A stretch of 64,000 bases of DNA from Dictyostelium discoideum (taxonomy: Eukaryota), in NCBI GenBank assembly GCA_000004695.1, contig CM000151.3, positions 384,001 to 448,000 on the forward strand, in the 5' to 3' direction. The translations under genes and the position numbers were made by a program. The notes beneath the pieces are model-generated. The model did no database searches. It saw only the letters and a list, made by a program, of their open reading frames with translations, and was not told the DNA's origin. Of this stretch, positions 5,155-22,770 are shown piece by piece (position 1 is the stretch's first letter; the number at the start of each line of letters is the position of its first letter).

Positions 5155-5412
5155 CCGTAATAATTATTAAAAATAGTTTAAAAGAATCATCCAAGTTGGC
5201 ACTTTTTTGTAATTACAAAAATTATATATGGGGACTCATATAAAATAATATGAACAATTTTGAAAAGTGCACTTAGATAGTTTTTATAATAACTAAATTT
5301 TTTTTTTTTTTTTTTGAGATATTTCATTATTTCCGAAATAATTTTTAAAATAAATTTTTTTTTTTTTTTTTCTTTTTTAAAAAAAAAACAATGGATAGAG
5401 ATAAAAATTATA

Positions 5413-8400
5413 ATGAAAAAATTAATTTTTTTAGAAAATAAAGACGAAACTAATATTGAAGAAAATAATGAATTAGAAAAAAAGGATTTAAAATCAATTA
5501 AAGAGATTGCAAAATTATATGGTGTATCAACAAGCAAATTAAATAAATCAGAAATCATTGAAAAGATTAAATCAATGTTTAAAAGAAAAAGAGAATATGA
5601 AGAAGAACAAAAACAAAAAGAAAATGTCAATTCATTTAATAAAATTATTAAATTAACAATTACAGATAATATTGAACTTACTGAAATACTATTTTGGAAA
5701 TTATTTAGAAATAAAATAATTTATAAAACCATATTCTCATTTATGGATAAACGAATCTCATTAACATATGATTCAATGTCGTCAATAAAGAATCTTATAG
5801 TCCATAATCAATTTGGTATATTAAAAGAAAAAGTTTATAGAAATTGTAGATATTTATATTTCAATCCAATTAGTTTTAATCCTAAAAATTATAAAATACA
5901 TCCAACATTATTATTTGTTAAATTATTTTCAAATATTAAAGATGATGATTATAGATTCTATAGAAACTTTTTAAATAGTGATAATTGTTATTATAATTCA
6001 TATTCAACTATATCAACAGCATTAATTTTATCAAAGAAATTTGAAATTTATAAATTATATATAAATGAATTCAGTTATAAACCAACAAAAACAGATCTTA
6101 TTTATTCAATTGCAGTTGGTTCAAATAAATTCATTAAATATATATTAGAATTAAATCCTTCATCATCATCATCATCACCTTCAATTGTAGAATCAGTTGG
6201 ATCAGATTATAAAAATTTCATTATCAATGATAGAAGCTTAAATTATTATCCAATTGAAAAAGATACTATATTTAAAGGACTACTATATTTTTTAAATACC
6301 ATTGGAGATAATGAGAATGATAATAATTGTAAAGATAAAACAACAACAAAAATAACTGAAAAAAGCGGTAGTGTTGGTAGTGTTGGTAGTGTTGGTAGTG
6401 TTGGTAGTAATAGTGGTTATGAAAAATATGGTCATCAAATAACAATAGAAACCCTTATTAATTTCATTAAACTTAGACATAGTAAAGGTTATGAAATTAA
6501 TGAAAGATCAACATTTAAACAATTAATCACAATTTGTAAATTAATATTAATATTACAGAAATCAGAAGAAGATGATTCAATTAAAACATTAGAACCACCA
6601 GCTCCAACAAGTATTCAAGAAATTGATAATTTTATTATTGAAAAAATAGATAAACAAACATTAAAATCAAAATTAGATAATCCAATTAATTATTATAATA
6701 ATAATAATGAAATTAAAAGTTTTATAAAAAAGTTATTAAATTTATATTATTCAACATTTAATTATATACCAAAGATTTTATATTTCTGTTATTATTATGG
6801 TAGTGATGATTGTGATAATTTATATTCAAGTTGCAATGATATTAACGCGAATACAGAGTTATGTCGTGTTGCCTTTAGATTTGGTAATTTTGAATTATTA
6901 GAATCTGTAAAATATATAGAATGCCACCAATTATTACCAAACCCTAGTTTTTATGACCATGATAATATTCTTTTTCAAAATCACCAATATATAGAGGATT
7001 TTGTAATTTTCTCAAATTGTTTTGACCAAGAAAAAAAGATTAAATTCATAGATGAATTAATTAAAAGAAATACCAAAAATGAAGAATTAAATTTTCAAAA
7101 CCATTTCTTTCATATGCTTGTAATTCATGATGATATTGAATTATTAAAATACTTTTCAAATAAAGTTGGTACAACTGCATTTAATTTTCATTCATATCGT
7201 TTTGAATTGAATGAAAAATTAACACCAACTTATTTTATAGAATCAATTGATATGTTAGATTATTTATTTTATAATCATAGAGATTATTTCATAGATATAC
7301 AATTTCCAAATAAGTACAGTACATTTTTTAAAAGTTTACAATTTTTACAACACTTTGAATCATTATTAATTCAATATAAATCAAACAACCCATCAATCAA
7401 TGAAAAGGATCCAATTAGTTTTATTAGATCTTCTTTAAACTTTAAAACAAACAAGAATTATCTTGATTTTGCAAATCACTTTGCAACAAACTCTATATAC
7501 CATAATGATACACTAGAATATCTTGACTTGTTATCCACACTAACAAGTGATCAATCATCATATAAAATATCAATCAACTCTGAATCATTAAAAAATTTAT
7601 TTACTTTATCACAACAACAACAACAACAACCACATAATAATAATAATAATAATAATAATAATAATAATAATAATAATAATAATAATAATAATAATAATAA
7701 TAATAATAATAATAATAATAATAATAATAATAATAATAATAATGGAACGAACCAACAGCAACAACACCAAAATGATACAAGTCAAAATACAATTGAGGCA
7801 CCTAATCCTTATTCTATGAGGTTTTTAAAATTAGTAGATTGGGTATTTATAAACTATCATCATGAATTAGAAAAAGATGGTAAATTATATTATAATAAAG
7901 ATCAATATTATCATTTTCTTTTTGCAACCGATAGATATGATTTAGATAGCAACAATGACACTAACAACAATACTATCAATAGCTATTACGATATAAAAAA
8001 AAAAATTTGTTTTGGTAGATTACTATCATTAATTAATCATGTTAACGAATTTACTCCATATTTATATGAAGTTAATAATTTTAAATTTTTAAATTGGTTT
8101 TTAACAAAGATTAAAAATATTCATTATTATTCAACCAAAAAAAAAACCATGGATGAATGGGCACTTATGTATACCCTTCCTAATTTTATGTCTTTTATTA
8201 CATGCAATTCAAGATTAAAAGTACTGGAATACATTCACCAATATTATCATTTCATTTTAAAAAAAGAAATAGATGGTGGAATATTACCTTCTAGAGAACT
8301 AAAATGTTACTTGCGGTCAACCATTGATCAAGGTTTAATTAAAGTTTCAGAATTTCTTTTTCAATTTACTTCAATAACTAAAAATGAATTTTACCGTTTT

Positions 8401-8448
8401 TCAAATGAAAAATTAAAATTACACTTTTCAAATAAATTTAATAAATAA
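5413..8448 (+). CDS. Member 1 of a tandem family of large lineage-specific proteins with an N-terminal SAP-like helix-loop-helix motif, plus poly-Asn and poly-Gln tracts
   Basis: 1044-aa track ORF; the probable true ATG is at 5413 (MKKLIFLENKDET...). The upstream ATG at 5392 (MDRDK, the start conserved in the paralogs) is out of frame and hits a stop. Conserved N-terminal block ELEKKDLKSIKEIAKLYGVSTSKLNKSEIIEKIKS...KRKREYEEEQKQKEN...IIKLTITDNIE.TEILFWKLFRNK...FSFMD is shared with the four downstream paralogs. The LKSIKEIAKLYG...K.EIIEKI pattern fits a SAP motif. There is an (AAT)36 poly-Asn run at 7636-7743. Confidence 0.65.
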   Translation: MKKLIFLENKDETNIEENNELEKKDLKSIKEIAKLYGVSTSKLNKSEIIEKIKSMFKRKREYEEEQKQKENVNSFNKIIKLTITDNIELTEILFWKLFRNKIIYKTIFSFMDKRISLTYDSMSSIKNLIVHNQFGILKEKVYRNCRYLYFNPISFNPKNYKIHPTLLFVKLFSNIKDDDYRFYRNFLNSDNCYYNSYSTISTALILSKKFEIYKLYINEFSYKPTKTDLIYSIAVGSNKFIKYILELNPSSSSSSPSIVESVGSDYKNFIINDRSLNYYPIEKDTIFKGLLYFLNTIGDNENDNNCKDKTTTKITEKSGSVGSVGSVGSVGSNSGYEKYGHQITIETLINFIKLRHSKGYEINERSTFKQLITICKLILILQKSEEDDSIKTLEPPAPTSIQEIDNFIIEKIDKQTLKSKLDNPINYYNNNNEIKSFIKKLLNLYYSTFNYIPKILYFCYYYGSDDCDNLYSSCNDINANTELCRVAFRFGNFELLESVKYIECHQLLPNPSFYDHDNILFQNHQYIEDFVIFSNCFDQEKKIKFIDELIKRNTKNEELNFQNHFFHMLVIHDDIELLKYFSNKVGTTAFNFHSYRFELNEKLTPTYFIESIDMLDYLFYNHRDYFIDIQFPNKYSTFFKSLQFLQHFESLLIQYKSNNPSINEKDPISFIRSSLNFKTNKNYLDFANHFATNSIYHNDTLEYLDLLSTLTSDQSSYKISINSESLKNLFTLSQQQQQQPHNNNNNNNNNNNNNNNNNNNNNNNNNNNNNNNNNNNNGTNQQQQHQNDTSQNTIEAPNPYSMRFLKLVDWVFINYHHELEKDGKLYYNKDQYYHFLFATDRYDLDSNNDTNNNTINSYYDIKKKICFGRLLSLINHVNEFTPYLYEVNNFKFLNWFLTKIKNIHYYSTKKKTMDEWALMYTLPNFMSFITCNSRLKVLEYIHQYYHFILKKEIDGGILPSRELKCYLRSTIDQGLIKVSEFLFQFTSITKNEFYRFSNEKLKLHFSNKFNK

Positions 8449-22636: not shown

Positions 22637-22699
22637 AAGAAATAATATCTATTGATAAAAAAAAAAAAAAAAAAAAAAAAAAAAAAGCTTTTTTTTCTC

Positions 22700-22770
22700 C
22701 AAATTATTTATTTATTTATTTATTTATTTATTTATTTATTTATTTATTTATTTATTTATTTATTTATTTT
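22700..22770. repeat. (TTTA)n / (TATT)n microsatellite followed by a long poly-T run, 3' of SAP-like member 5
   Basis: Seen directly: tatttatttatttatttattt... then T48. Confidence 0.8.

Follow-up and report, generated by a model that had tools for sequence, protein, structure and literature searches.

We analysed a 64,000-nucleotide stretch of Dictyostelium discoideum DNA (GenBank assembly GCA_000004695.1, contig CM000151.3, positions 384,001 to 448,000 of the forward strand), hereafter the window, and focused on the tandem gene array found at 5.3-22.7 kb of it. As the original prediction had proposed, five copies of one gene family lie there head to tail, all on the plus strand. Four of the five are intact open reading frames (ORFs) of 910-1053 aa, and the remaining one, copy 4, is frameshifted and internally deleted.

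Copy 1 (5413-8448) encodes 1011 aa, the same length as the product annotated by NCBI in assembly GCA_054883475.1. It contains a block of the helix-extended loop-helix (HeH) kind at 5470-5574 (Pfam Rho_N on residues 20-53), a KRKR cluster at 5581-5592, and an (AAT)36 tract at 7636-7743. Copy 2 (9193-12354, 1053 aa) presents (AAT)59 at 9205-9381, the HeH block at ~9403-9504, and (AAT)22 at 11632-11697. Copy 3 (12914-15967, 1017 aa) has (AAT)35 at 12944-13048, the HeH block at ~13076-13183, and (AAT)23 at 14327-14395. Copy 4 is a pseudogene at ~17334-19230, delimited by tblastn pieces and ORF fragments. Copy 5 (19904-22636, 910 aa) is the most divergent copy, with (AAT)18 at 19937-19990 and the HeH block at ~20021-20125.

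For the four intact copies, identical products are annotated by NCBI on contig JBTAPE010000001.1 of GCA_054883475.1. The window DNA is 99.76% identical to that assembly, with 37-49 gapped bases in ~16-23 kb; the differences are mostly intergenic indels in A/T runs, together with a few mismatches in the retroelement region, and the two sequences thus stem from different assemblies or near-identical strains. Since the flanks are identical to AX4 DDB_G0271438 and DDB_G0271470, the locus is the AX4/AX2-type chromosome 2 region between these two genes.

The intact copies are clear paralogues. Their proteins are 58-66% identical to copy 1 in a MAFFT alignment (55-66% for the window copies among themselves), and tblastn between copies gives E = 0.0. 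Every conserved block quoted beforehand was recovered from the alignment of the intact copies: LKSIKEIA...EIIEKIKS, KRKREYEE and ILFWKLFRN at the N-terminal side, and further on FS(N/H)CF(D/N)QEKKIKFID, LQ(F/L)LQHFESLL, LKFVDWVFINYHHEL, and TPFLYEVNNFKFLNWFL. The order of the blocks is common to the family, with the HeH block first, then KRKR, ILFWKLFRN, and the C-terminal blocks, and an alignment of 20 family sequences retains 59 invariant columns.

Apart from the blocks, the copies carry long asparagine tracts. Copy 1 has N36 at residue 742, as first read, and the N-terminal tract of copy 2, first given as N63, measures N59 and starts at residue 5. The others are N22 at residue 814 of copy 2, N35 and N23 in copy 3, and N18 in copy 5. 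All 193 Asn codons of the six tracts are AAT and none is AAC, in a window of ~78-80% A+T.

At the coding level, the other two sense-strand frames of each intact gene contain 68-258 stop codons. We simulated neutral divergence of copy 3 with its own base composition, and at 5, 10, and 12.5% divergence the ORF acquired on average 13.5, 25.7, and 31.8 stops; none of 500 simulated ORFs stayed open, even at 5%. The real copies have 19-26% nucleotide divergence (coding DNA 74-81% identical) and are all open. Since they are open at a divergence where simulated ORFs close, selection must be removing nonsense and frameshift mutations. By this measure, the four intact ORFs are genuine protein-coding genes kept open by selection, and copy 4 illustrates how the sequence decays once constraint is gone. 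The spacers between copies are alignable only for ~70 nt beside the ORFs.

To follow the locus among strains, we used comparison assemblies with ACTFI-type tags, most likely from Holland et al. 2025 (PMC12745789). In that study, CR116C and OT3A are D. discoideum isolates diverged from AX4, and M4B and S6B are possible cryptic species (PMC12745789). In ACTFIW (L002), five family genes, arranged head to tail and encoding 993, 1000, 795, 944, and 970 aa, come after tRNA-Val(AAC). The first two are the orthologues of copies 1 and 2, with ~91% DNA and 92% protein identity after tract masking; that of copy 1 lies at L002 6448-9426, and that of copy 2 is P0003 (ACTFIW_011142), 85% identical by BLASTP and 92% once tract-masked. 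For copies 3 and 5, nothing in the ACTFIW array exceeds 63% identity, and the fourth and fifth ACTFIW genes cannot be paired one-to-one with any window copy. Family members are also linked to the GNAT acetyltransferase gene that follows the array in other discoideum-clade assemblies, where copy numbers differ. Between array and GNAT gene there are ~20 genes in ACTFIW, judging from locus-tag numbering, versus none in the window. The birth-and-death turnover suggested earlier is thus borne out by one pseudogene and by an array content that differs between strains.

The replication slippage of (AAT)n suggested at the same time also agrees with the data. The tracts are pure AAT and their orthologous lengths differ between window and ACTFIW, N59 vs. 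N11 and N22 vs. N10; the third orthologous tract is N36 vs. N34. Other low-complexity indels between the strains affect SG, DC, and S runs.

The shifted start of copy 1 had also been noticed correctly. Ahead of the ATG at 5413, where the main ORF begins, another ATG at 5391 starts a frame of only 16 codons before a stop. The short frame (5391-5441, plus strand, read from the sequence: MDRDKNYNEKINFFRK, then the stop) is a relic of the ancestral start, in another frame than the main ORF. In the ACTFIW orthologue, the start (MNIDKNYNEKINNNFLENKDE...) is continuous in one frame, and therefore an indel in the AAT-rich leader of copy 1 moved the frame. From this comparison, we conclude that copy 1 was rescued by the downstream ATG at 5413 after the leader indel.

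Copy 4 is decayed, as had been stated. Its homologous pieces are spread by tblastn over frames 3, 2, 1, 3, and 1. The frame switches at nt 18639 without any gap and again across a gap of 23 nt (18896-18919), neither of which is possible as an intron. Judged by its frames, copy 4 is a true pseudogene with at least two genuine frameshifts that splicing could not remove. It lacks the HeH block, KRKR, and the C-terminal third, with internal and C-terminal deletions of ~1 kb; it retains a relic of the start (MDRDKK followed by a stop), and its EILFWKLFRN segment is duplicated. NCBI annotation bridges it into a 440-aa model. Its ACTFIW counterpart is the open ORF of 795 aa.

For amino-acid divergence, Nei-Gojobori dN/dS among the four intact paralogues was 0.62-1.01 (dS 0.23-0.47), with copies 2 and 3 near 1, and against the ACTFIW orthologues it was 0.31 for copy 1 and 0.88 for copy 2. 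These ratios describe a fast amino-acid divergence under weak or diversifying selection, with stop codons still purged. Divergence is mosaic along the genes, where stretches with 88-98% nucleotide identity are interspersed with others at 60-70%; this fits either gene conversion or very uneven constraint. Two controls were tried and set aside. The duplicated amine-oxidase genes downstream of the array were uninformative for dN/dS, being 98-99% identical. The neighbouring gene chosen as a between-strain control is a pseudogene in the window's genome and served only as a rough neutral yardstick, with 92% DNA identity between window and ACTFIW.

Homology searches retrieved full-length homologues (E 1e-153 to 1e-281, coverage 87-100%) in Dictyostelium only, from D. 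discoideum isolates, D. cf. discoideum, and D. firmibasis. When a family profile was run against 1.84 billion representative proteins, 64 matched at E<=0.001; ten distant ones were looked up, and each belonged to the genus (D. discoideum, D. cf. discoideum, D. citrinum, D. firmibasis, D. dimigraforme, or D. purpureum). Every relative with a nameable source thus comes from Dictyostelium, and the description of the family as lineage-specific holds, within collections that appear to omit proteins with homopolymer runs longer than ~11 residues.

The family is less novel than first thought. It had been presented as possibly undescribed, but UniProt and NCBI already list its AX4 members as hypothetical proteins with a Rho_N domain. 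UniRef names DDB_G0271438 and DDB_G0271166 'Rho termination factor N-terminal domain-containing protein', and a D. purpureum relative "SAP domain-containing protein". Three AX4 relatives are 46-48% (DDB_G0271438), 42-44% (DDB_G0271166), and 32-33% (DDB_G0268918) identical to the window copies. The first two are encoded on chromosome 2 and the third on chromosome 1, and all three share the N-terminal block, KRKR, and the C-terminal blocks over a coverage of 95-100%. The window copies differ from them as a distinct subgroup, less than 50% identical to them and with much longer (AAT)n tracts. The family is therefore already known at the sequence level and is of a kind common in Dictyostelium, that of lineage-specific, tandem, Asn-tract-laden hypothetical proteins with a small motif of DNA-binding type.

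Further members were sought outside the array, and the family indeed continues beyond the window, 10-35 kb upstream on the same contig, so that the array described at first is only part of it. The upstream members encode 902 aa (ACTFIT_002089), 943 aa, and 672 aa, and there is also a 304-aa fragment. ACTFIT_002089 clusters with AX4 DDB_G0271166, and the protein of the 943-aa gene, ~25 kb from the array, is identical to AX4 DDB_G0271438; this gene and a close DDB_G0271166 counterpart, 99.6% identical over its C-terminal half, are 15-30 kb upstream. The whole cluster spans ~55 kb, and its upstream members are interleaved with DDE_3 transposase and reverse-transcriptase genes.

A technical point affects any count of these genes. 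All 208 proteins returned by our protein searches have homopolymer runs of at most 11 residues. Apparently missing from the collections are the four window proteins, with runs of 18-59, and two ACTFIW array genes, whose runs measure 14 and 34, although their neighbours with runs of 10-11 can be found there. The protein collections appear to exclude long-homopolymer proteins, which biases any census of a Dictyostelium family, and the family size is therefore a lower bound. For a time, finding no AX4 counterpart above 57% identity had suggested that AX4 lacks the array; we rejected this idea, as the missing proteins are those with homopolymer runs of 14-59 and the flanking genes are 100% identical to AX4 genes.

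The N-terminal block has the consensus eLEKKsLKSIKEIAqSYsIStxkLKKaEIIEKIKS. Pfam Rho_N (PF07498) matches copy 1 with E=4.5e-4 and 20.6 bits (gathering score 24.9), reaches ~13 bits on the whole proteins of copies 2 and 5, and gives no match on copy 3. When the N-terminal blocks were isolated, it matched eight of 11, the best with E=4.7e-5, and one relative (P0001) has a precomputed PF07498 match. Searched against all PDB sequences, a profile of the block found the SAP domain of Ku70 (1jjr_A) at E=8.8e-4 and Rho (3l0o_A) at E=0.5. SAP itself (PF02037) was not matched at E<=1 when Pfam was run on the whole proteins or on the isolated blocks. AlphaFold2 (AF2) models place a helix at residues 8-17, a nine-residue loop, and a second helix at 27-45, with a predicted local distance difference test (pLDDT) score of ~80-89.

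The SAP-like motif that had been proposed thus stands in a broad sense, from the Ku70 SAP profile match, the Rho_N matches, and the modelled helix-loop-helix, but not in the strict one, since no Pfam SAP match exists and Rho_N stays under its threshold. We consider "SAP-like" a reasonable but not proven label for this block. With the SAP domain (Ku70, SAF-A, PIAS) and its HeH relatives (Rho_N, LEM), the block appears to share a ~35-residue helix-extended loop-helix and the hydrophobic spacing L..L....L..IA...gI.....kK.EIIE.I. It differs in that the second helix of the window proteins continues into a long basic and acidic helix, and in that the family scores lie under the Pfam thresholds; DNA binding by the block is putative.

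Directly after the HeH motif, the family proteins carry KRKR(E/D)YEE. In the 20-sequence alignment, two basic residues of KRKR are invariant and the other two are present in at least 90%. This stretch fits the classical monopartite consensus for nuclear localisation.

The rest of the protein is a helical body of ~800 residues. For copy 5, the AF2 model (m190a18fe66ec, residues 39-910) is all-alpha with a mean pLDDT of 72, and the modelled body looks like a helical solenoid. There is a weak structural resemblance to ankyrin-repeat and other alpha-solenoid scaffolds; however, Pfam finds no Ank family in it and recognisable 33-residue repeats are lacking. Across the whole proteins, Pfam scans gave no SAP, ankyrin, or transposon domain, and only the sub-threshold Rho_N.

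Expression data are available for one relative. At 16 h of development, DDB_G0271438 had 262 RNA-seq reads in the wild type vs. 4 in the mef2A- mutant, and qRT-PCR also displayed a near-complete dependence on Mef2A (PMC3640940). On the strength of its domain, the same study classed it with the putative transcription regulators (PMC3640940). Within the window, the Mef2 consensus CTA(W)4TAG has two matches, both inside the long terminal repeats (LTRs) of a retroelement, vs. 2.4 expected by chance, and does not argue for Mef2 sites in front of the copies.

Taken together, we lean, by a modest degree, towards the array being a real and selectively maintained Dictyostelium family of nuclear, DNA-tethered scaffold proteins that is rapidly diversifying. 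The protein architecture consists, in order, of a variable poly-Asn leader, a predicted HeH motif of ~35 residues (SAP/Rho_N type), KRKR, and the ~800-residue all-alpha body. The HeH motif and the basic cluster would bring the protein into the nucleus and anchor it to nucleic acid, with AT-rich DNA or chromatin as the most likely target, and the helical body would be a protein-binding scaffold that recruits partners. Expression would be developmental, like that of the paralogue DDB_G0271438. The locus itself evolves by tandem duplication and loss, together with (AAT)n slippage, one event of which moved the start of copy 1.

Several points weigh against this proposal. A dN/dS of 0.6-1.0 is also expected from weakly constrained genes of little importance. 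The HeH matches are all marginal, with Rho_N at 20.6 bits below its gathering score of 24.9 and no Pfam SAP match. The body has no significant structural match in PDB by Foldseek (best E=0.0096, template modelling (TM) score <0.2), and comparing the body to itself with hhalign found no internal repeats, none rising above 0.4% probability. Besides, the three AX4 relatives are not listed in the supplementary files of a life-cycle proteome. Expression of the window copies is what we infer from the paralogue DDB_G0271438, and both nuclear location and nucleic-acid binding of family members are predicted from motifs.

The alternative that survives best, which we regard as possible but doubtful, is that of an arms race. 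Here, the family would be under positive selection against a fast-changing partner, such as retrotransposons, a selfish element, or a social or kin-discrimination interaction in development, and this conflict would account for the variation in copy number and sequence between strains. The ratios among paralogues (0.62-1.01) and for the copy 2 orthologue pair (0.88) are in line with it. So are the strain-specific array content, with ~20 genes from array to GNAT gene in ACTFIW vs. adjacency in the window, and the surroundings rich in transposable elements, with an LTR element 240 bp upstream of copy 1 and RVT_1 and DDE_3 genes nearby. The paralogue is also expressed in the multicellular stage (PMC3640940). 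However, none of the 60-codon alignment windows (~25-35 synonymous sites each) had a statistically secure dN/dS > 1, and the copy 1 orthologue pair gave 0.31. Moreover, ACTFIW is diverged across the region, as seen for the neighbouring pseudogene with its 92% DNA identity; given this high regional divergence between isolates, the protein divergence of the family cannot by itself count as exceptional. Relaxed constraint gives the same dN/dS numbers.

A bolder form of this idea, which we hold to be rather unlikely, is a hypervariable locus with tgrB/C-like dynamics, in which nuclear HeH proteins would be positively selected in genetic conflict and each strain would have its own repertoire. The conflict could concern the silencing or tethering of the surrounding tRNA-targeted retrotransposons, or a strain-specific developmental interaction. 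With the tgr clusters (PMC12745789), the array shares tandem duplication and loss, a strain-specific complement, and pseudogene fragments, as well as developmental expression, seen here for at least one relative of the window copies. In contrast, tgr genes encode surface immunoglobulin-like receptors, and the window proteins are unrelated to them and without signal peptide or membrane features.

Alternatively, the HeH motif might act like the bacterial Rho_N, as part of an RNA-binding or other non-chromatin module, and the proteins would then work on RNA or in the cytoplasm; we find this improbable. The best Pfam match is indeed Rho_N and not SAP, and the weak top Foldseek matches of the body include spliceosomal and pentatricopeptide repeat (PPR)-type RNA-binding helical repeat proteins, but these are not significant, with TM scores of 0.1-0.2. 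In Rho, the helical subdomain is only a scaffold for the adjacent OB (oligonucleotide/oligosaccharide-binding) fold, which the window proteins lack. The best match among solved structures is the DNA-binding SAP domain, and the KRKR right after the motif resembles a classical nuclear localisation signal.

That the copies are functionless, either decaying repeats or annotation artefacts, would be consistent with the decay of copy 4, with a dN/dS near 1 between copies 2 and 3, and with expression data that come from the paralogue only. This explanation is very hard to reconcile with frames of ~1000 codons open through 19-26% divergence when 0/500 simulated ones were open at 5%, and with conserved blocks common to relatives as far as D. 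purpureum. The least probable origin of all, a transposon-encoded or domesticated gene, draws on a cluster interleaved with retroelements and a DDE_3 transposase gene, but Pfam finds no transposase, reverse-transcriptase, integrase, or protease domain in the proteins, and none of the genes falls within the LTR element (2515-5154). Repeats able to be termini are not shared by the spacers, and the array is syntenic between strains beside tRNA-Val and the GNAT gene.

If the proposed function is true, the array would provide a set of rapidly diversifying, DNA-tethered scaffolds private to Dictyostelium. With at least one member switched on by the MADS-box factor Mef2A in multicellular development, it would be a candidate lineage-specific layer of chromatin or transcription control. 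At the genomic level, the locus is a clean natural example of pure (AAT)n slippage that reshapes coding sequence, start codon included. It also exemplifies tandem gene birth and death between close strains, and a very recent insertion of a tRNA-targeted LTR element into a promoter region. No long-standing question is opened by it, and the relatives are already hypothetical proteins in the reference proteome.

The LTR retroelement is 2.64 kb long (2515-5154, minus strand), and its two LTRs (2515-2782 and 4887-5154) have 268 bp each and are 100% identical. It lies 28 bp upstream of tRNA-Val(AAC) (2412-2486, minus strand), the sole Rfam match in the whole window, and ~240 bp upstream of copy 1. 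Its single ORF of 642 aa contains a CCHC knuckle, an aspartyl protease, and an integrase-type SH3 tail. As it has no reverse transcriptase, we assign it to the internally deleted, non-autonomous, tRNA-targeting (DGLT-A-like) kind. In ACTFIW, the same tRNA-Val is 279 bp from the copy 1 orthologue with no element between, and the insertion is thus recent and strain-specific, in the promoter region of copy 1.

Downstream of the tRNA gene, positions 1-2400 of the window have 40% G+C and contain two minus-strand ORFs (873-1730 and 1754-2116) without Pfam match. Genes with an RVT_1 domain lie just upstream of the window on the contig. This segment is probably part of a cluster of tRNA-associated non-LTR (TRE-type) retrotransposons.

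Within the array, the interval at ~16200-17270 (minus strand) between copies 3 and 4 is richer in G+C and presents coding-like fragments in several frames with stops. Two of its segments (16215-16418 and 16961-17187) form an internal direct repeat with 68% identity, and an SdrD_B-like match in it stays below threshold (E=7.6e-6). NCBI annotates no gene there, and an 81%-identical stretch lies between the second and third array genes of ACTFIW. The interval resembles what is left of a decayed gene unrelated to the family.

Between copy 5 and the convergent GNAT gene is a perfect 50-bp inverted repeat (22637-22686 and 22795-22848, 98% over 54 bp) with a spacer of ~108 bp, which starts immediately behind the copy 5 stop codon. 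It may have a role in 3'-end formation or be a recombination-prone palindrome.

The next gene on the downstream side of the array, a GNAT acetyltransferase (22925-23452, minus strand), is 100% identical to AX4 DDB_G0271470 and is duplicated in ACTFIW. Outside Dictyostelium, its closest relatives are Flavobacterium GNAT proteins (RimJ/RimL-type), with 55-65% identity over the full length. We consider it a candidate for horizontal transfer from bacteria to dictyostelids.

Finally, two other sets of duplicates are found downstream. The amine-oxidase-like gene copies at 24773-26009 and 29856-31076 have exons with 98-99% protein identity and a dS of 0.009-0.017, suggesting that a segment of ~5 kb next to the array, on its downstream side, was duplicated very recently. 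A second tandem paralogue pair at 34580-38227 and 38622-42584 (plus strand) encodes Cys-rich proteins of 1215 and 1320 aa that are 32% identical and have a sub-threshold SprB-repeat match, and the region is generally rich in tandem duplicates.

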